Of a DNA stretch of 64,000 nucleotides, positions 41,538-49,565 are shown piece after piece; the stretch's first letter is position 1; every line of letters starts with the position of its first letter. Origin of the DNA: an uncultured Acidobacteriota bacterium (GTDB lineage: Bacteria > Acidobacteriota > Thermoanaerobaculia > Gp7-AA8); contig CAWGHO010000003.1 of the NCBI GenBank assembly GCA_963822445.1, forward strand, positions 608,001-672,000. The letters are read 5' to 3'. The position numbers and the translations under genes are program-made. Below the pieces are notes generated by a model. The model was not told where the DNA came from, made no database searches, and saw only the letters and a program-made list of their open reading frames with translations.

Positions 41538-42179
41538 TCAGCGCAACCACTTCATCGAAACCCCCGCCTCCCCCCGAATCGCCACGGCGCCGCGGTAACC
41601 GCCGTCGAGCTCGAACGCGTGAACGCTGAGGCCCTGCAGCAACGCGAGCTCGGATTGGACGGGCACGAACCGGCCGACTTCCGGACGGACGACGAACGAG
41701 TCGAGGGCGTGCGCGAGTCCACGGCCGGTGGCTTTGATGACCGCTTCCTTCGCCGTCCAGATGGCGAGGAAGGTGGCCGGCACATCCTCCGCGATCTCCA
41801 CCGTGCGCCGTTCCTCGGGAGCGAAGAAGCGGTGGGCGAGCTCGCGCGCGTCCGAAACGGCTCGCGGGCCTTCGATGTCGACGCCGACCGGTTGCTGCGA
41901 AACGGCGAGCACGACGAGTTGGCCGGAGTGGCTGATGTTGAACTCCAGACCGCCGCCGGCGAGCGCGGGTTTCCCTTCGTCAGCGCGCGTGAAGCGCAGG
42001 TCACGCGGATCGTGCGATGAGTACTTCGCCAGCACTACCCGGCGGAGGTAACGGCTCATGGCCGCGCGTTTGCGGTCGTCCTCGAAGCGATAACGCGCCA
42101 CTTCCGCCGCTTCCTCGTCGTCGAGGAGCGAACCGTCGATGCGTGTGCCGATGTCGGCGAGCCAGAGATCGAGCATCAT
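41538..42179 (-). CDS. Sfp-type 4'-phosphopantetheinyl transferase
   Basis: GKP, FNISHS, VGVDIE, WTAKEAVIKATGRG. Confidence 0.93.
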   Translation of the reverse strand: MMLDLWLADIGTRIDGSLLDDEEAAEVARYRFEDDRKRAAMSRYLRRVVLAKYSSHDPRDLRFTRADEGKPALAGGGLEFNISHSGQLVVLAVSQQPVGVDIEGPRAVSDARELAHRFFAPEERRTVEIAEDVPATFLAIWTAKEAVIKATGRGLAHALDSFVVRPEVGRFVPVQSELALLQGLSVHAFELDGGYRGAVAIRGEAGVSMKWLR

Positions 42180-42186
42180 TGCCAGT

Positions 42187-43266
42187 ATGAAACAAGCGCT
42201 GATCCTCCTGGTGCTCGTGGCCCTGGCGGTCTGGGTCGCGTCGTGGTTCTGGGCGGGGGACCAGGTCGACGCCGCGGCCGCACGGCCGTGGCCTCATGGA
42301 CTGGGAACGCTCGCCCGGGTTCCCGATCGGTATCCGCCGCAGCAAGAGAATGAAGCTGCGCGGAAGCTCACGAGTCTCACCGGCTCAATCGCCGAAAACG
42401 ACGCCGTCACCACGTACGTGCGAAAGGAGATCGCGAGCGGCGAGCTGACCATCGCCGAGCCGCCGGCGATCCCCGACCTCTCCGCGATCCGCGACCTGCT
42501 GCTGCGCGAGCCGATCGTCTGGAAGCGGCAGATCTCCGTCCAGCACGGCGGTCTTCTGGTGCGAGTCCCGATGTTCCTTTCGCTGACGCGAGCTCTGATC
42601 GCAAACGCGCTGGGCCGCGCGCGCCAGAACGACATCGCCGCGTGGGACGACCTGCACGCGGCGTGGAATCTGACGAAGTCGCTCGACGGACATCCGCATA
42701 TCGTGCTGCGCGTCGTCGCGATGGCGATGACCCGCACGATCAACGCCGTGGCGTGGAAGATGCCCCTTCCTGCGCCGGCGTGGTTCGCCGAGTTGCAGGA
42801 GCGCGAGCTCGTGCGGCCGCTGTTGGAGACGCTGCAGTTCGAGAACTGGCGGCAGTGGAAACATCATGTGTTCGCGCTGAAGCCGTTCGCGGAGCGGATC
42901 GAGCGCGAGCGCGCGCTCACCGCCGAGTTGGGGCGGATGACTGAATGCGAGTTCAAGCGCGTGACCGAGACCGGCGATCGCGGTGATCCTCTCTCCAGGC
43001 TCGACATCGGGTGGCGGCGATCCTTTCGCTACCGCGCCGAACGCGAGGCCACGGCGAACGCACTGCGCGCACGTGCCGGGCAGCCGATCGAAGCAGGCTC
43101 GCGCTGCAGCGACGGCACCTGGAGCTTCGACGGAAAGACGCTCCGGTTCGCGAAGCCGATCGCGTTACCGGAGAAGATCGACACGTCGATGCCGCTGACG
43201 TTGCAGGTGGGAGACGCCGTTCAGCGCGCCGTTCCTCCAACTGCGCGACTCCCGAAGCGGAGATAG
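42187..43266 (+). CDS. exported hypothetical protein
   Basis: N-terminal TM/signal MKQALILLVLVALAVW. Helical body. 3' end overlaps the RND gene convergently. Confidence 0.7.
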   Translation: MKQALILLVLVALAVWVASWFWAGDQVDAAAARPWPHGLGTLARVPDRYPPQQENEAARKLTSLTGSIAENDAVTTYVRKEIASGELTIAEPPAIPDLSAIRDLLLREPIVWKRQISVQHGGLLVRVPMFLSLTRALIANALGRARQNDIAAWDDLHAAWNLTKSLDGHPHIVLRVVAMAMTRTINAVAWKMPLPAPAWFAELQERELVRPLLETLQFENWRQWKHHVFALKPFAERIERERALTAELGRMTECEFKRVTETGDRGDPLSRLDIGWRRSFRYRAEREATANALRARAGQPIEAGSRCSDGTWSFDGKTLRFAKPIALPEKIDTSMPLTLQVGDAVQRAVPPTARLPKRR

Positions 43267-46200
43267 AGCGCCGGCACGACGAACATGTTCAGGGCCGTCG
43301 AGGTCAACAGGCCGCAGAGGATGACGATGGCCATCGGCGTCTGAATCTCGCTGCCCGGCTTGCCGATCGCCAGCGCCAGCGGGATCAGTGCAAGTCCGGC
43401 CGAGAGCGCCGTCATCAGGATCGGCGAGAGCCGCTCCATAGCGCCCCGCTGCACTGCCTCGCGCACGTCCGTCACGCCTTCGTGGGTCATGAGGTGATGC
43501 GTGTGCGAGATGAGCATCAGGCCGTTGCGCGTGGCGATGCCGAAGAGGGTGATGAAGCCGATGATCGACGCGACGGAGAGCGTTCCTCCCGCGACGTAGA
43601 CGCCGGCGACGCCGCCGATCAGCGCGAGCGGCAGGTTGACCATGACCAGCGCCGCATCGCGCAGCGAGTCGAGCGCGATGTAGAGCAGCAGCAGGATTCC
43701 GGCGATGACGACGATGCCGAGGAGCACGAGACGGCGCGACGCTTCCGCTGCGCTCTCGAACTGGCCGCCGTATTCGATGTGATAGCCGGCCGGCAGCTTC
43801 ACCGTCGCCGCGACCTGATCGCGGATGTCCTCGACGACGCTGGAGAGATCGCGGCCGGCGACGTTCGACATGACGACCGCCTTCCGCTCGACGTTCTCGC
43901 GGCTGATCGTGTTCGGTCCCCGATCCTTCCGAACCTCGGCCAGCGCGGAAAGCGGAATCTGTGCGCCGCCTGGCGTGGCGATGCGCGTGGCGCGGATCGT
44001 CTCGAGATCGCCGGTCGCCGCCGCTTCGTAGCGCACGACGAGATCGAATGCGGCGCGTCCTTCGAGGATGCGCGAGACCTCGTGCCCGGCGAAGGCCGTC
44101 TCGATCGCTTCGGCAACGTCGGTGATCTGCAACCCGTACCGGGCGATGGCCGCGCGATCGAACTTCACGGTGAGGAAGGGGATGTCCGGCTGCTGTTCGA
44201 GCGACACGTCGGCCGCGCCTTCGACCGCCGTCACGACGTTCTTCACCTGCTCGCCGAGCTTGCGCAGCGTCGCCAGATCGTCGCCGAAGATCTTCACGGC
44301 GATGTTCGCGCGCGTGCCGGAGAGCATGTGGTCGATGCGATGCGAGATCGGCTGGCCGATGGTGATGTTCGTTCCCGGCACGGCCGACAGCTTGCGCCGC
44401 AGATCGGCCAGAAATTCGTCCTTGCCGCGATCCTTCATCTTCAGGCTGACCTCCATTTCGGAGGCGTTGACGTCCTGCGCGTGCTCGTCGAGCTCCGCAC
44501 GGCCGGTGCGCCGGGCCGTGGCCACGACTTCCGGCTCGCCGAGGAGGATTTCCTCGGTCATTCGTCCGAGGCGGTCTGAGGTTTCGAGCGACGTTCCGGG
44601 AAGGGTGACGAGGTTGATGGTGAGCGTGCCTTCGTTGAAGTCGGGGAGGAACGCGCGGCCCGCGAACGCGAGCGCGACGCCGGCGATCGCGAGCGCGGAG
44701 ACGGAGACAGCCGTGATCAGCTTCCAGCGATGCAGCACGCGGCCGAGCAGCGGCGCGTAGCGCGATTTCAGCCAGTGCACGACACGGCTTTCCTCCGGCA
44801 GCGCGCGCGGCAGGAGAAGCGAGCAGAGCGCCGGCGTGACCGTCAGCGCGACGACGAGCGACGCGGCGAGCGACACGATGTAGGCGAAGCCGAGCGGCCG
44901 AAGCAGGCGGCCTTCGATGCCGGTGAGGAAAAACAGGGGCAGGAAGACGAGCACGATGATGACCGTCGCAAAGACGATCGACCCCCGCACTTCGCGGCTC
45001 GCTTCAAACACGACCTCGAGAACATTTCTGCTTTCTGCCTTCTGCTTTCTGCTTTCGCGCAGCCGGCGCACGACGTTCTCGACGTCGATGATCGCGTCGT
45101 CCACGAGCGCGCCGACGGCGATGGCCATGCCGCCGAGGGTCATCGTGTTGATGGTGATGCCGAACAGCTTCATGGCCAGGATGGCCGTCACCAGCGACAG
45201 CGGGATGGCGAGCACGGTGATCCCGGTCGCGCGCGCGCTCATGAGGAAGATGAAGACGATGGCAATGACGAGGATCGCGCCGTCGCGCAGTGCGGCGACG
45301 ACGTTCCGTACGGCGATCTCGATGAAGTCCGACTGCCGGAAGATGTGGCTGTTGATCTTCATGCCGGCCGGCAACGACTTCTGGATGTCGGCCATCACCA
45401 CGTCGAGCTGCCGCGTGAGCTGGAGCGTGTTCGCGGCCGGTTGCTTCTGGATGCCGAGAATGACCGCGGGCTTGGCGTTGTGCGAACCCTCGCCTCGTTT
45501 CAGAGCAGCGCCGATCTGCACGGTTGCCACATCGCGGACGAGGATCGGCTGGCCGCCGCGCTCGACGATGACGGTCGCGCCGATGTCGTCGGGAGTGGTG
45601 ATGCGGCCCACGCCATGAATCAGATACTCCTGACCGCCTTCGCGGTAGAAGCCTGCCGATGTGTTCTCGTTGCTCTCGCGAAGCGCGCGGATCACGTCAT
45701 CCACGCCGAGCGTGAATGCGGCCAGACGGTCGGGCCGCACGATCACCTGGTACTGCTTCGTCTCGCCGCCGGTGGGGATGACCTGAGACACGCCCGGCAC
45801 CGCGAGCAGGCGGCGACGCACGGTCCAGTCGGCGACCGTTTTCAGCTCCATCGGCGTGTGCTGGTTCGAGGTGAGGGCGATGAACATGATCTCGCCCATG
45901 ATCGAAGAGACCGGCGCGAGCACGGGCGGCGGCATGTCCGGCGGCAGCGTCGATTGCGCGAGCTGGAGTTTCTCGCTCACGACCTGGCGGGCCTGGTAGA
46001 TGTCCGTGCCCCATTCGAACTCGACCCAGATCACGGCGATGCCGACGCCCGTGGACGAGCGCACGCGCCGGACGCCCGATGCCCCATTCAGCGCCGTCTC
46101 GACGGGAAAGGTGATCTGCGTCTCGACTTCCTGCGGCGCCATGCCATGCGCTTCGGCGACGACGGTCACCGTTGGCGCGGTGAGATCGGGGAACACGTCC

Positions 46201-46307
46201 ACCGGCATCTTCACCGCTTCGTACGTACCCCACGCCAGGAGCAGCGCCGCCGTGACGATCACGATGAGACGGTTGTTGAGAGACCACTGGATGATGTTGT
46301 CGATCAT
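43221..46307 (-). CDS. heavy-metal RND efflux permease (CusA/CzcA family)
   Basis: PVDVFPDL, GALVDDAIIDVENV, RLSPILMT, GSEIQTPMA. Confidence 0.95.
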   Translation of the reverse strand: MIDNIIQWSLNNRLIVIVTAALLLAWGTYEAVKMPVDVFPDLTAPTVTVVAEAHGMAPQEVETQITFPVETALNGASGVRRVRSSTGVGIAVIWVEFEWGTDIYQARQVVSEKLQLAQSTLPPDMPPPVLAPVSSIMGEIMFIALTSNQHTPMELKTVADWTVRRRLLAVPGVSQVIPTGGETKQYQVIVRPDRLAAFTLGVDDVIRALRESNENTSAGFYREGGQEYLIHGVGRITTPDDIGATVIVERGGQPILVRDVATVQIGAALKRGEGSHNAKPAVILGIQKQPAANTLQLTRQLDVVMADIQKSLPAGMKINSHIFRQSDFIEIAVRNVVAALRDGAILVIAIVFIFLMSARATGITVLAIPLSLVTAILAMKLFGITINTMTLGGMAIAVGALVDDAIIDVENVVRRLRESRKQKAESRNVLEVVFEASREVRGSIVFATVIIVLVFLPLFFLTGIEGRLLRPLGFAYIVSLAASLVVALTVTPALCSLLLPRALPEESRVVHWLKSRYAPLLGRVLHRWKLITAVSVSALAIAGVALAFAGRAFLPDFNEGTLTINLVTLPGTSLETSDRLGRMTEEILLGEPEVVATARRTGRAELDEHAQDVNASEMEVSLKMKDRGKDEFLADLRRKLSAVPGTNITIGQPISHRIDHMLSGTRANIAVKIFGDDLATLRKLGEQVKNVVTAVEGAADVSLEQQPDIPFLTVKFDRAAIARYGLQITDVAEAIETAFAGHEVSRILEGRAAFDLVVRYEAAATGDLETIRATRIATPGGAQIPLSALAEVRKDRGPNTISRENVERKAVVMSNVAGRDLSSVVEDIRDQVAATVKLPAGYHIEYGGQFESAAEASRRLVLLGIVVIAGILLLLYIALDSLRDAALVMVNLPLALIGGVAGVYVAGGTLSVASIIGFITLFGIATRNGLMLISHTHHLMTHEGVTDVREAVQRGAMERLSPILMTALSAGLALIPLALAIGKPGSEIQTPMAIVILCGLLTSTALNMFVVPALYLRFGSRAVGGTAR
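45025..45056. repeat. heptamer array inside the RND coding sequence
   Basis: atttctgctttctgccttctgctttctgcttt, translated as ESRKQKAESRN in the cytoplasmic loop after TM4. Confidence 0.85.
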
Positions 46308-46309
46308 TT

Positions 46310-46340
46310 GAAGGCAGAAAGCAGAAGGCAGAAGGCAGAA
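46310..46340. repeat. left heptamer arm (GCAGAAG)n
   Basis: gaaggcagaaagcagaaggcagaaggcagaa. Confidence 0.92.
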
Positions 46341-46358
46341 GTGCCTTTTGCCAGACGG

Positions 46359-46703
46359 CTACTGCCTCCTCCATTTCTTGATGAGTGTTACGAAGATCGC
46401 AATCAGCTCTTCGGTCTCGCGCATCAGCGGCTCGATGCGGTCGGTCGGGAAAACGTCAGCCCCAATGAGCAACTCCAGCCAATAGAGCGTCTCCTCGAGT
46501 TCCATCAGGCCGCTGTTGAGTTTCGCGACGTACTCCGCTTTCGAGCGGGCACGCAGCGCCTCGCGAAAATGCGCGCCGGGTGATGTTCCAGATCGGAGCA
46601 ACTGCTTACCGATGACCGCCGCGACCTGGTCGCGCGGCAGTGCCGAGTACAGCCTGATGATCCGCAGCGAATACTCCCGAGTCCGATCCACAAGCGTGCT
46701 CAT
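46359..46703 (-). CDS. four-helix-bundle protein (23S rRNA IVP / TIGR02436-like)
   Basis: QLLRSGTSPGAHFREA.RARSKAEY..KL....ELEET.YWLELL. Confidence 0.92.
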   Translation of the reverse strand: MSTLVDRTREYSLRIIRLYSALPRDQVAAVIGKQLLRSGTSPGAHFREALRARSKAEYVAKLNSGLMELEETLYWLELLIGADVFPTDRIEPLMRETEELIAIFVTLIKKWRRQ

Positions 46704-46704
46704 A

Positions 46705-46742
46705 TTTCTGCCTTCTGCCTTCTGCTTTCTGCCTTCTGCCTT
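46705..46742. repeat. right heptamer arm (CTTCTGC)n
   Basis: tttctgccttctgccttctgctttctgccttctgcctt, the reverse complement of the left arm. Confidence 0.92.
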
Positions 46743-48325
46743 TAATGCGCGTGTCCATGCGCAGGCACAGCCCCCGATGCCGCCTGCAGACGGATGTTGT
46801 AGGCGCCGCGCGTCACGACGCGATCGCCAGGTTTGAGTCCTTCGACGATCTGCACGCGATCGCCCTGGCGCGTGCCGAGCTTCAGCGGGCGGCGCTCGAA
46901 CAGCTCGCCTTCCAGCTCGACGTAGGCGACCGGTTGGCCGTCCTCATCGACGACCGCGGACAGGGGAATGACGATGCCGCGGACCGTCGTCGCGGTGAAG
47001 ACCTGCGCGCGCACGAACATGCCCGACTTGAGCTGCCGCGACGCATTCAGCACTTCGAAAATGAGCGCGACCGTGCGGGTCTGCGGGTTCACCACGCCGC
47101 CTGTTCCGATGACGCGGCCGCCGCCGCGCGGGCTCACTTCAAACGGAGTGGGGAAGCCTTCCGGCTGGAACCAGACGCTGTCGGAGCTCTGCACCTGACC
47201 GATCTGTCCTTCCGGGATCTGCAGCTCGAGCCAGAGGCGCGAGAGATCGACGACATGGAACAGCTCGCGCCCTTCCTCGATGAACTCGCCCGGAGCAACG
47301 GTCACGGCCACGATCGTTCCGGCGACCGGCGAGCGCACCTCGAACCGTCCGGCCGATTGGCCGCCGGTCGCGCTCTGCGTGCCGCGGTACTGAGCGAGCC
47401 GGCTCTGCGCGGCCCGCAGGTCCGCGCGCGCCGCTTCCTCCTGCCGCCGCGCATCGAGGACGCGACGCTCCGGCACCGCTTCCTGCGCGAAGAGTCCTTC
47501 GAGCCGCTTTCGCTCCGCTTCTGCCTGCCGGACGGCGATCTCCGCGCGCTGCGCGTCGAGGTTGAGCGATGCCGGATCGACGTCGCTGGGAACGCGCGGC
47601 GCGATCACGCCGAGGACCTGATTGCGTGCGACGTTCATCCCGACCTGTGGATACGTGCCGCGGGCGAGGAACCGGCCGCCCGCGGGCGCTCCCACGCGCG
47701 CCTCGCCATCCGGCCGCGGACGAAGCACGCCATTCGCCGCGACGGAGCCGCGCACTTCGCCTTCCACGACGGGCGCGGTGGCGAACTCCGTCTTCCACTG
47801 TTGTTCTTTGAGGTAGACGATCCCGCCGGATTCCTCTTCCGATTTCGGCGCCGCTGCGATCGCCGCCTGCTCGGACTCGAAGACGGTCACCAGGCCGAGG
47901 TCGTGGCGCGAGACCGCGCCGTCGAAAGCGATCTCGAAGACGAGCCGCCGCTGCCCCGCATGCTGCGGTTTCGCGATCGGCCGGAAGATGCCGGGAACGC
48001 TCGGCGCGTTCGCGCTGAATCGTTCCTCGGCCGCGCCGCCTTCGCTGAGGATCGCCGTCACCGTTCCCGTTGCGAGCGGCTTGAAGTCGGACAGGCGCGT
48101 GACGTGCGCGGCGAACGGCGACTCCGCACCCTTCGCCAAGGCGTCAAACTCCACGAACAGCTCCGTTTTGTCCGTGAAGTGCGTGTAGGTGAGGGCCTCG
48201 CGTTCGGGGGCTTCGGCGCGTTCTTCGTGGCGGCACGCCGCGGAAAGCAGAAGGCAACACGAAAGCAGAAGGCAGAAGGCAGAAAGCAGAAGTGCTCCGC
48301 CGGCTGCACGCTTAGTTCGTTTCAT
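46742..48325 (-). CDS. RND periplasmic adaptor (CusB/CzcB family), lipoprotein
   Basis: Lipobox LSAAC, RSPVAGTI, KSGMFV, GDRVVTRG. His tail HGHAH. Confidence 0.92.
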   Translation of the reverse strand: MKRTKRAAGGALLLSAFCLLLSCCLLLSAACRHEERAEAPEREALTYTHFTDKTELFVEFDALAKGAESPFAAHVTRLSDFKPLATGTVTAILSEGGAAEERFSANAPSVPGIFRPIAKPQHAGQRRLVFEIAFDGAVSRHDLGLVTVFESEQAAIAAAPKSEEESGGIVYLKEQQWKTEFATAPVVEGEVRGSVAANGVLRPRPDGEARVGAPAGGRFLARGTYPQVGMNVARNQVLGVIAPRVPSDVDPASLNLDAQRAEIAVRQAEAERKRLEGLFAQEAVPERRVLDARRQEEAARADLRAAQSRLAQYRGTQSATGGQSAGRFEVRSPVAGTIVAVTVAPGEFIEEGRELFHVVDLSRLWLELQIPEGQIGQVQSSDSVWFQPEGFPTPFEVSPRGGGRVIGTGGVVNPQTRTVALIFEVLNASRQLKSGMFVRAQVFTATTVRGIVIPLSAVVDEDGQPVAYVELEGELFERRPLKLGTRQGDRVQIVEGLKPGDRVVTRGAYNIRLQAASGAVPAHGHAH

Positions 48326-48371
48326 GATCCGGTCCCCCATTTCTGCTTTCTGCCTTCTGCATTCTGATTTC
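48242..48371. repeat. empty inverted heptamer cassette spanning the TolC/adaptor junction
   Basis: (GCAGAAR)n at 48242-48290, ~48 bp spacer, then (TTCTGCY)n at 48340-48371. Confidence 0.88.
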
Positions 48372-49565
48372 CGGCGCGGCCAACGCACGGAATAGCTCGA
48401 TTTCGGCAGCGCGCGCGCGGCCTTCGAGATCGGCGGCTTCAAGCTCCGCATCCAGCGCCGTCCGGTGGGCGTCGAGCAGTTCGAGGATGCCGACCTCGCC
48501 CGCGCGATAGGCCGCTTCGGCAGTGCCAGTCAGACGTTCAGAGGTGGGCAGGGCCTGCTCGCGGAAGAGGCGCGCGGCATGGCGCAACTCGCGCGCTTCC
48601 GCCGCGAGGGCGCCGGCTTCGGCGCGTGCACGCGTGACGAGGAGCGTGCGTTGCGCGGTCAGGATCGCCAGCTCCGCGTTCGCGCGCAGCAGCTCGTCCT
48701 GATTGCGATTGAAGATCGGCAGACTGAGGCTCGCGCCGAGAATCGCGCCGCTTGCCGCATCGGTGTTCTTCATGCCGGCCGTCAGATCGAAGAGCGGCAC
48801 GCGCCAGCGCTGGGCGGCCTGCTGGTCGAGCGTCGCCGCTTCGATCCGTTTGGCGATGGCCGCGACGTCGGGGCGCTGTTCGATGCGCGCGGTCAGCTCC
48901 GCGTCCGTCGGAATCTCCGGTGCGTCCGGTCGCTGCAACGTCACACCTTCCAGCCGTTCGATGCCGAGAAGTCCGGCGAGTCTTCGTTGGGCCGCGACGA
49001 GCGCGCCGCGCTCCGCCGCAAGGCGCGCTTCCGCACCGATGCGCTCGCGTTCGAGACGGCGGCGGTCGTATCCCGAGACCTCGCCGCCGGCTTGCAGACG
49101 CGCCACAGTTTCCGCCGCTGCGCCGATCTTGGTCGACCATTCCGTCAGCGCGCGCACCAGTTCCTGTTGATTCGCCGCGCGGCTGAATTCCGATCGGACG
49201 ACGTGTGCCAGGTCGAGTTGTTGCCCGGCGACCTCCTGCTGCACTGCCTCGACGCGCAGCTCGGCTGCGCGTCGCCGCAACGCCCGGCGGCCGGAGACGT
49301 CGAACGACTGCGAGAGCGTCAGAAACTGTTCGGTCTCGCCGGCGCTTTCGCGCGTGTAGTCGAGCGTCGGATTCGGCCAGCGGCGTTCGCGCCCCACGTC
49401 ACTGCGCGCGAGATCGAGCTGCGCCGTGCTGAGTGCAACGACGCTCTGCGCGCCGCTGGCAATGCGCACGGCATCGTCTTCGGTGAGTACGTTCGGGATC
49501 GTCTGCGCGCGTGCTGCCGTCGCGGAAACCAGCAGGCCGATGATGAGGAATCGTTGAAAACGCAA
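48312..49565 (-). CDS. TolC/CzcC family outer membrane efflux protein
   Basis: Signal peptide, PNPTL, LPIFNRNQ, AYRAGEVGILELLDA. Confidence 0.92.
   Translation of the reverse strand: MRFQRFLIIGLLVSATAARAQTIPNVLTEDDAVRIASGAQSVVALSTAQLDLARSDVGRERRWPNPTLDYTRESAGETEQFLTLSQSFDVSGRRALRRRAAELRVEAVQQEVAGQQLDLAHVVRSEFSRAANQQELVRALTEWSTKIGAAAETVARLQAGGEVSGYDRRRLERERIGAEARLAAERGALVAAQRRLAGLLGIERLEGVTLQRPDAPEIPTDAELTARIEQRPDVAAIAKRIEAATLDQQAAQRWRVPLFDLTAGMKNTDAASGAILGASLSLPIFNRNQDELLRANAELAILTAQRTLLVTRARAEAGALAAEARELRHAARLFREQALPTSERLTGTAEAAYRAGEVGILELLDAHRTALDAELEAADLEGRARAAEIELFRALAAPEIRMQKAESRNGGPDHETN

Follow-up and report, generated by a model that had tools for sequence, protein, structure and literature searches.

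Why does a gene for a small helical protein, framed by two inverted arrays of seven-base repeats, stand between the adaptor gene and the permease gene of a metal-efflux operon? This question is raised by a stretch of 64,000 nucleotides from an uncultured Acidobacteriota bacterium (contig CAWGHO010000003.1, positions 608,001 to 672,000), which is referred to as the window and to which plain coordinates refer. Our analysis indicates that the small gene, a member of the PF05635/TIGR02436 family, and its two repeat arms form a cassette that was inserted into the operon. This cassette is one member of a widespread and barely described class of hairpin elements that are built like the intervening sequences of ribosomal RNA (rRNA), and PF05635 genes are almost always packaged in such heptamer arms. 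New here are the series of filled, empty and collapsed sites, the take-over of arms as coding sequence, the polarity rule of the hairpins, and the match between the arm modules of cassettes and hairpins. The genome of the window is denoted G000 and its relatives are numbered G001 and up.

The cassette and its insertion site

Four minus-strand genes form an operon of the heavy-metal-type resistance-nodulation-division (RND) class, in the order outer-membrane factor, adaptor, 114-aa open reading frame (ORF) and permease. The parts are as follows, in the order of the mRNA:

48312..49565, minus strand: outer-membrane efflux protein (PF02321), whose final codons are the purine arm and loop of a second hairpin (hairpin 2, described below)
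46742..48325, minus strand: RND periplasmic adaptor (CzcB/NccB-like), 527 aa from the ATG at 48325 (HlyD_D23; TIGR01730; TIGR00999 CzcB/NccB below cut-off)
46706..46741, minus strand: 5′ arm on the mRNA, a purine-rich array of five GCAGAAG/A heptamers, of which 46706-46736 is the perfect 31-nt arm
46359..46703, minus strand: four-helix-bundle gene, 114 aa (PF05635 / TIGR02436; ATG 46703-46701, TAG 46361-46359)
46341..46358, minus strand: 18-nt inner spacer after the bundle-gene stop codon, ending in GCAC
46310..46340, minus strand: 3′ arm on the mRNA, a pyrimidine-rich array of TTCTGCC units, with the permease ATG 2 nt further on
43221..46307, minus strand: RND permease of the CusA/CzcA family, 1028 aa (ACR_tran; TIGR00914 at 865 bits, cut-off 701)

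A preliminary description of this region, made from its letters, had claimed that the cassette fills the whole gap between the adaptor and the permease, that its arms are complementary over about 30 bp, and that the permease lacks a Shine-Dalgarno (SD) motif. Each of these claims held on re-examination. The adaptor stop codon TAA (46744-46742) is followed by a single A and then by the five heptamers (46740-46706), which read GGCAGAA, GGCAGAA, AGCAGAA, GGCAGAA, GGCAGAA on the mRNA; AT and the bundle-gene ATG follow directly. The pyrimidine arm reads TTCTGCC TTCTGCC TTCTGCT TTCTGCC TTC and is followed by AA and the permease ATG (46307-46305). The arms, 4.4 and 5 units long, are 100% complementary over 31 nt (46310-46340 against 46706-46736), and an imperfect extension to 34 nt at 91% takes in the adaptor stop codon, which is otherwise separated by 1 nt from the array and by 5 nt from the perfect stem. 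The permease AUG stands 2 nt past the stem, and no SD motif is present in the 10 nt 5′ of it (CUGCCUUCAA; read from the sequence).

Allowing at most one mismatch, we counted the double heptamer 14 times in the window, where 0.02 would be expected; none of 100 shuffles equalled this number. The arms also pair in the predicted fold of the 471-nt RNA, a check that the preliminary description had proposed: its energy is −209.6 kcal/mol, compared with −170.3 ± 5.4 for shuffled sequences (z = −7.2), and single arms folded separately are unstructured. The bundle gene is the only ORF of the cassette. No recombinase was found in the cassette and no invertase nearby, no promoter-like or terminator-like sites were found across 46200-46900, and no Rfam family was found in the cassette RNA, for which the sole matches were two sub-threshold microRNA models. 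Transcripts of 46000-47100 were looked for in 24 RNA runs, and in none was more than 0.10 of the sampled sequence words found. The inner spacer ends in GCAC in 5 of the 13 listed GCAGAAG-type cassettes and in CAC in 4 more.

We compared the adaptor-permease junction in nine orthologous operons, in which the permease N-terminus is 90-93% identical to that of the window. The site is empty in seven of the nine. In G023, G032, G013, G033, G001 and G028 the stop codon is followed by CGGGAGCC(A/C)CG or CGGAGACCCG and then by the ATG; this spacer measures 11 nt and carries a GGGAG or GGAG SD motif 5 nt ahead of the start. The G030 junction reads TAG AGATCTCAA ATG, with a 9-nt spacer that is SD-less, retains the TCAA-ATG junction and opens with the palindrome AGATCT, in which the outermost three purine-unit bases (AGA) are joined to their complement (TCT). 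G030 also has the other two arrays of this operon. Because of these shared arrays, the missing SD, the TCAA-ATG junction and the palindrome, we infer that the G030 spacer is a collapsed cassette; the alternative is that G030 never carried one.

G035, placed in another genus by the classification tool, has the same cassette end (the last bundle-gene codons, the spacer and the arm) in the same orientation as in G000, and its contig breaks off inside the cassette, 76 nt upstream of the permease ATG. The 3′ arm and the AA before the permease ATG are identical between G000 and G035 at 33/33 positions (31-nt arm + 2 nt); in the adjoining stretch 4 of 43 positions differ, and the permease genes differ by about 13%. 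The permease tree separates G000, G030 and G035 from the seven others with 100/100 support and leaves the order within the trio unsettled. These comparisons indicate that the cassette replaced the ancestral 11-nt, SD-bearing spacer in the lineage of these three genomes. When filled and empty junctions were compared, no target-site duplication was seen, and the ancestral spacer is gone. The orthologous operons had been named in the preliminary description as the place to look for empty sites, and the bundle gene proved not to be conserved here in an armless form.

At the same junction, G034 (L014) has a different palindromic insert of about 110 nt, with arms of about 30 nt and no tandem units. 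This insert lies about 135 nt before the permease start, and an SD and a TTG start are retained behind it. The junction seems to attract hairpin inserts, namely the G000 cassette and the G034 palindrome.

Close relatives of the bundle gene were found in several other contexts:

G008 copy: 76% protein identity, beside a DUF3108 gene
L077 and L078 copies: 72% and 71% protein identity, beside a response regulator
G024 copy: 63% protein identity, after an Ig-domain protein
L080, L085 and L092 copies and the frameshifted G035:C114 copy: 60-68% protein identity, at the adaptor-permease junction of a different, CusBA-type operon

Since these relatives occupy different gene contexts, and since relatives with 50-72% identity are spread across phyla, the sequence data support a discrete mobile cassette. 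The empty sites and these contexts agree with the preliminary claim of an inserted cassette without a transposase. The permease of the CusBA-type operon is 35% identical to that of the window and 78-85% identical among the CusBA-type copies, and no orthologue of this operon was found in G000. The same cassette lineage is therefore seen at the adaptor-permease junctions of two paralogous pump operons, which may reflect target preference or chance. In one of these copies (L053, G035:C114, 1389-1716) the bundle gene is frameshifted into two pieces in different frames, and the arms are still complementary.

Packaged PF05635 genes and the hairpins of the genome

All six PF05635 genes of G000 are flanked by inverted tandem arrays, with one unit per cassette (GTTAGTC, GGACGAG, GGTT(G/A)CGG, GCAGAAT, GCAGAAG/A and AATTGAA), and none of the six is flanked by rRNA. 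A homologue of the bundle protein was identified in 32 of 61 relative genomes, and complementary period-7 arms scoring >26 were present at 28 of the 30 loci fetched from them, both misses lying at contig ends. The rows of relative loci include the unpublished genomes G002 and G025, and no conclusion is based on either alone. We then used a 7-row alignment as a query against a species collection and kept 80 loci, 50-72% identical to the query, from Acidobacteriota, Cyanobacteria, Planctomycetota, Verrucomicrobiota, Chloroflexota, Proteobacteria, Nitrospirota, Bacteroidota and others. At 72 of these loci the arms scored higher than any of 400 shuffled controls; all 72 have period 7, and the median arm is 30 nt. 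The other eight comprise two with cut flanks, three cyanobacterial and three borderline loci. Shuffled flanks served as the control, and the flanks of other loci are unsuitable because many loci share units. This census of bundle genes, which the preliminary description had put forward, shows the window cassette to be one of many. The unit type tracks the protein tree, with 17 changes where shuffles average 23.9 and none of 200 goes as low; jumps occur too, such as GCAGAA-type units in two separate protein clades.

The bundle protein matches PF05635 (53.7 bits, cut-off 33.8) and TIGR02436 (74.3 bits, cut-off 24), and a sequence search matched it to the BT_0352 structure (2rld_A, E = 2.4e-22). 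XCC0516, 2gsc, was also matched by a profile of 14 relatives of the protein. The AlphaFold (AF2) model has a pLDDT of 96.2 and structural similarity (TM) scores of 0.88 to 2rld, 0.83-0.85 to 2gsc and 0.79 to 4dwl, the Avd protein of diversity-generating retroelements (DGRs). According to the model, the protein has a four-helix-bundle fold like that of 2rld and 2gsc, and both relationships stated in the preliminary description, to the family of the 23S rRNA intervening sequences and to Avd, are thereby confirmed. The resemblance of PF05635 to Avd is stated in a passage of a DGR paper (PMC10053308), and 2gsc is described as a pentamer in a passage of PMC4990558, which cites Lin et al. 2006 for it.

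The ratio of nonsynonymous to synonymous substitution rates (dN/dS) of the bundle gene is 0.07-0.23 over seven pairs, with dS of 0.85-2.0, and 0.12-0.16 for the window gene against the G008 and G024 copies. These substitution rates indicate that the protein is under purifying selection. The arms are also kept. The orthologous AATTGAA cassette, which has a common downstream gene in G000, G015, G028, G004 and G006, shows identical four-unit arms at dS >1, and in G020 and the unpublished G002 all units of both arms are changed to AATTGAG. This comparison points to a concerted, pair-preserving change, in which the arms stay paired while synonymous sites saturate.

The whole-genome hairpin scan covered G000; relatives were covered by two orthologous sites and three unit patterns. 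A total of 759 tandem arrays with periods from 7 to 10 were found in G000 (period 7, 342; period 8, 333); they form 210 inverted pairs, 195 of them with loops of 3-95 nt. Arm length, rounded, comes to four units in 278 of the 390 hairpin arms. Among the 29 GCAGAAT hairpins the 31-nt arms are near-identical, and the loops and outer flanks are unrelated. The polarity of the 195 hairpins is invariable: 170 are G-first, none is C-first and 25 are neutral (38 unit families). Counted by purine content, the polarity is 134 to 2, and solo arrays are balanced across strands (121 to 134). All 72 arm-bearing cassettes from other phyla are purine-first. Because an inverted repeat reads alike on both strands, purine-first is the polarity of the hairpin itself and not of gene orientation. 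The order given in the preliminary description, with the purine arm preceding the bundle-gene ATG, is thus not a property of the way the gene faces. Since the arms of about four units (of 7-8 nt) and the G-rich-first polarity match, the window cassette is the gene-carrying form of the tandem-unit hairpins of G000. The tallies of neighbour orientation showed that gene-less hairpins occur between divergent and convergent genes too.

Other genes were also seen between inverted arrays. G000:C2:654246-654687 holds a 121-aa ORF without a Pfam family, and G000:C3:1661433-1661785 holds a 95-aa ABM-domain protein (PF03992, 24.9 bits). A Ku gene (G000:C1:381009-382397) is bracketed by inverted 8-mer arrays 1.3 kb apart, and several other ordinary genes (a GspE-type ATPase, an acyl-CoA ligase with a TetR regulator) are likewise bracketed by inverted arrays, over 1-2 kb.

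Two orthologous sites were used to compare hairpins between genomes. At site 1, the start of a secreted-protein gene (G000:C1:348077-348174; L164-L175), 2 of 12 genus genomes have a plain signal peptide and the other 10 have arrays or hairpins with at least five different units, in frame. There the purine arm is read as the charged n-region and the pyrimidine arm as the hydrophobic core; in G000 the hairpin is of the GCAGAAT type. At site 2, between co-directional genes, 10 usable genomes comprise 2 empty sites, 1 unrelated sequence and 7 hairpins with differing units. Three perfect units were also counted in 35 genus genomes, of which 13 had any match, each dominated by one variant. Counts for six of them are as follows:

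G000: GCAGAAT 37, GCAGAAC 0, GCAGAAG 2
G012: GCAGAAT 38, GCAGAAC 12, GCAGAAG 0
G011: GCAGAAT 3, GCAGAAC 0, GCAGAAG 65
G024: GCAGAAT 4, GCAGAAC 31, GCAGAAG 173
G027: GCAGAAT 3, GCAGAAC 4, GCAGAAG 286
G030: GCAGAAT 0, GCAGAAC 0, GCAGAAG 42

The cassette of the G000:C3:1244131 clade has the matching unit in G000, G012, G011, G024 and G027, and complex arms in G005, G018 and G033. When eight cassette arms were scored against the hairpins at the two orthologous sites, the arm of the own genome's cassette was the best match for 6 of 9 hairpins (G000 31/31 nt twice, G005 42/50, G033 25/26, G018 29/37 and G024 35/40), in a small sample of non-independent relatives. These alignments indicate that the sharing within a genome extends from the unit to the whole arm module, that one module gives way to another when the same site is compared between genomes, and that hairpin arms reproduce a resident cassette's arm module in full.

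Arm modules in the coding regions of the operon

The arm module of the window cassette is found again in two coding regions of the same operon:

48341..48360, minus strand: 5′ arm of hairpin 2 (GCAGAAGGCAGAAAGCAGAA), coding for the outer-membrane protein tail MQKAESRN
48292..48340, minus strand: 49-nt loop of hairpin 2, with the adaptor ATG (48325-48323) and the outer-membrane protein stop (48314-48312)
48242..48291, minus strand: 3′ arm of hairpin 2, perfect for 20 nt at 48272-48291 and then a decayed array run, coding for the hydrophobic core of the adaptor signal peptide, LLLSAFCLLLSCCLLLS
45024..45056, minus strand: solo array of the cassette module, in frame in the permease (ESRKQKAESRN), where 7/9 orthologues have ENRNLPPEQQRGM or a close variant

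Hairpin 2 is present in G000, with a 20-bp perfect stem, and in G030. Of the eight relatives examined at the junction of the outer-membrane protein and adaptor genes, seven show GGAGGA and then a classic overlap of stop and start codons (ATGA), and their adaptor begins with an ordinary lipoprotein signal peptide. Translation of hairpin 2 yields the tail of the outer-membrane protein (..MQKAESRNGGPDHETN) from its purine arm and the hydrophobic core of the adaptor signal peptide (ALLLSAFCLLLS..) from its pyrimidine arm. Compared with the empty sites, the 5′ arm falls inside the ancestral GGAGGA, after GGAG, and a native-looking GGA..CCCGAT..ATGAAACG is left in the loop. The alignment would make the loop native sequence; this is opposed by the loop ends, since similar sequences form the inner ends of related cassettes (GCAGAAATGG, as in G024, and GGCGGAGCAC, as in G035:C114).

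The solo array of the permease sits in a cytoplasmic loop, and ESRKQKAESRN is coded by four heptamers in G000; G030 and G035 have decayed forms of this in-frame array. Each of the three purine arrays of the operon ends in GCAGAAAT, with an ATG within 2 nt. Five arrays of the cassette unit lie within 5 kb of the bundle gene, against 0.09 expected (one mismatch allowed per double unit), and with the strict pattern 5 of the 11 arrays of this unit in the genome lie in this operon. We considered whether a cassette generally seeds arrays beside itself and rejected this, as it is true for one of the six G000 cassettes, the other five having their two arms only.

Proposed working, alternatives and known systems

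The reading that we think fairly probable is that of an inserted PF05635 heptamer-hairpin cassette which is co-transcribed with the operon, whose stem is cut by RNase III or opened by the ribosome, and whose Avd-like protein keeps or spreads the arm modules. The cassette is probably transcribed within the czc-type operon mRNA, because it has no promoter-like or terminator-like site of its own. In this mRNA the arms would form a 31-bp stem, its foot bringing the permease start up against the adaptor stop. The homologous 23S rRNA intervening sequences suggest, by analogy, that RNase III is likely to cut this stem. Or else the stem would be opened by the ribosome that finishes the adaptor, which would release the purine arm to lead into the bundle gene and leave the permease with the pyrimidine arm as an unstructured leader. 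The conserved, Avd-like protein is most likely a nucleic-acid-binding factor by which the arm modules are kept or spread, the likeliest reading of the packaging, selection, mobility, hairpin and module data taken together.

The analogy is drawn from passages of a study of the Coxiella burnetii 23S rRNA intervening sequence (Warrier et al. 2016, PMC4990558), on which the Coxiella statements here are based. The 28-bp stem of that sequence is cut by RNase III, and tandem GACAGAT heptamers stand just ahead of the S23p start. Like the ORF-bearing 23S rRNA intervening sequences of Coxiella and Leptospira, the window cassette has an S23p/PF05635 gene in its loop, terminal inverted repeats, a stem of about 28-31 bp and tandem heptamers before the ORF; both lack a transposase and are tolerated as an insert within a transcript. 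Unlike them, it lies outside the 23S rRNA gene (helix 9, 25 or 45), between protein genes of an mRNA operon and not in helix 45 as in Coxiella, and both of its arms are wholly heptamers. RNase III cutting was demonstrated for Coxiella, whereas for the window cassette it is proposed by analogy only.

Several observations weigh against the reading that we favour. There is no target duplication, no cassette recombinase and no RVT_1, so that no known way of moving fits; a retro-element mechanism in particular was rejected, as no RVT_1 was found in G000, a 94.7% complete genome. The RNase III gene is intact in all 12 same-genus relatives, but in G000 it is split over two or three frames (G000:C3:961366-961748; L075, L076; three-contig assembly), which is probably an indel error and may be a real defect. 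The Coxiella authors conclude that S23p is probably not made, whereas the protein is under selection here, and the analogy is incomplete to that extent. Three of the nine hairpins at the orthologous sites are not best matched by their own genome's cassette; two of these come from genomes that share the GCAGAAG unit, and the third, at G012 site 1, has other units. G030 has 42 GCAGAAG arrays, but the protein query found no intact GCAGAAG-type cassette there. Finally, the bundle gene is not the sole cargo, since two other small genes also lie in hairpin loops.

One rival explanation is translational coupling or shunting, in which the stem stays uncut and holds the adaptor stop and the permease AUG together, so that a ribosome finishing the adaptor would unwind the foot of the stem and start again at the SD-less permease AUG. 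The closeness of both codons to the stem fits this, as does the permease, whose ancestral SD is lost and whose 1028-aa frame is still intact; at hairpin 2, too, coupling would be kept by the outer-membrane protein stop, which lies 10 nt past the adaptor ATG in the loop. Among 33 loci, a co-directional ORF ends ≤22 nt from the 5′ arm at 28 and another starts −2 to +23 nt from the 3′ arm at 26, distances that are rough (ORFs ≥90 aa, a simple rule, GC-rich DNA). However, any insert in a short operon spacer would give the same geometry, so that these distances are no evidence of function. Cassettes also occur without an abutting co-directional neighbour (5 of the 33 loci on the 5′ side and 7 on the 3′ side), and gene-less hairpins are also seen between divergent and convergent genes. 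We regard coupling as unlikely to be the explanation. An invertible DNA switch, in which recombination between the 31-bp inverted arms would flip the bundle gene and alter operon expression, is very improbable: repeats of this length can support inversion, but at most loci the gene points the same way as its neighbours, no invertase is nearby, and the orientation is identical in G000 and G035.

It could also be that a DNA-level process makes tandem-unit palindromes throughout the genome and that the bundle gene is a frequent passenger or bystander, with a function unrelated to the arms. About 195 gene-less hairpins stand against 6 gene-bearing ones, other small genes are found in hairpin loops, orthologous sites hold hairpins with different units in different genomes, and arrays enter coding regions alone too. 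On the other hand, 6/6 PF05635 genes lie in hairpin loops, compared with two other small genes in the whole 6-Mb genome, and the same packaging recurs at 72/80 loci of many phyla as well as in a true rRNA intervening sequence (as described in PMC4990558). A mere passenger would also leave unaccounted for that the unit type follows the protein tree and that hairpin arms copy the resident cassette's complex arm, over 42/50 nt in G005 and 25/26 nt in G033. On balance we give this explanation a small chance of being right.

A stronger form of the cassette reading may be put forward as a speculation, and we think it decidedly doubtful. The cassette would be the master copy of an element without transposase or reverse transcriptase, whose Avd-like protein writes or overwrites, at many sites, inverted arm modules of about 31 nt that are specific to the genome, with the arms of its own gene as template; the gene-less hairpins would arise in this way and would change along with the cassette. 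Such a process may have left its footprint in the invariable polarity. The G-rich strand runs 5′ to 3′ toward the centre on both sides, like a head-to-head fusion of two telomere-like arrays, which is consistent with repeats being added at both 3′ ends of a break or of staggered nicks and the ends then being joined.

Should the protein turn out to maintain the arm modules, bacteria would have a new way of homogenising or mobilising sequence. In the large PF05635/TIGR02436 family, two structures have been solved and no function is known outside DGRs; the excess of tandem heptamers in bacterial genomes is old and unexplained. Linking the two provides a testable context for each. Sister genomes in which the site is filled, empty or apparently collapsed make the operon a natural experiment, in which a downstream gene was kept after its SD was lost. 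The operon also shows the arm module put to use in the tail of one protein, the signal-peptide core of another and a loop of the pump.

We found no description of PF05635 cassettes outside rRNA in the full-text literature, subscription journals and supplements excluded; for this class of element, published heptamers were met in the Coxiella rRNA intervening sequence alone. In Xanthomonas, dispersed GGGAATC heptamer repeats form 70-75 convergent pairs per genome (Rehm et al. 2015, PMC4692102, main text). Like the G000 hairpins, these are tandem heptamer arrays, convergent (G-first) and capable of forming a stem-loop; they are treated there as G-quadruplex motifs and are not linked to PF05635, and the words 'intervening', 'four helix' and 'S23' do not occur in that main text. 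Avd of the DGRs (4dwl; DGR ribonucleoprotein 8ub7) has the same fold as the bundle protein, with the TM score of 0.79 at 19% identity, but in contrast to a DGR, G000 has no RVT_1 anywhere, the neighbours are efflux genes, and no template/variable repeat pair was seen. DNA transposons and miniature inverted-repeat transposable elements differ from the cassette in their target-site duplication and cognate transposase, the bundle gene being the only cassette ORF.

Rickettsia palindromic elements are hairpin repeats inserted in frame into protein genes and read as peptide. They resemble the present case in that the outer-membrane protein tail, the adaptor signal peptide and the permease loop are coded by hairpin repeats; here, however, the arms are tandem 7-8-nt units, the loops are unrelated between copies and a gene-bearing form exists. 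REP/REPIN systems with a RAYT transposase combine many short intergenic palindromes with a single-copy gene flanked by the same repeats. Unlike in those systems, there is no HUH transposase here, the flanked gene codes for a 114-aa helical bundle, and the arm sequence varies by cassette.

Such cassettes also matter for genome annotation, since operons are split, ORFs lengthened and short-read assemblies broken by them; the G035 contig ends inside its cassette. At the far end of the operon, a 375-aa ORF on the plus strand (window 42139-43266) converges on the end of the permease gene with a 46-nt overlap.

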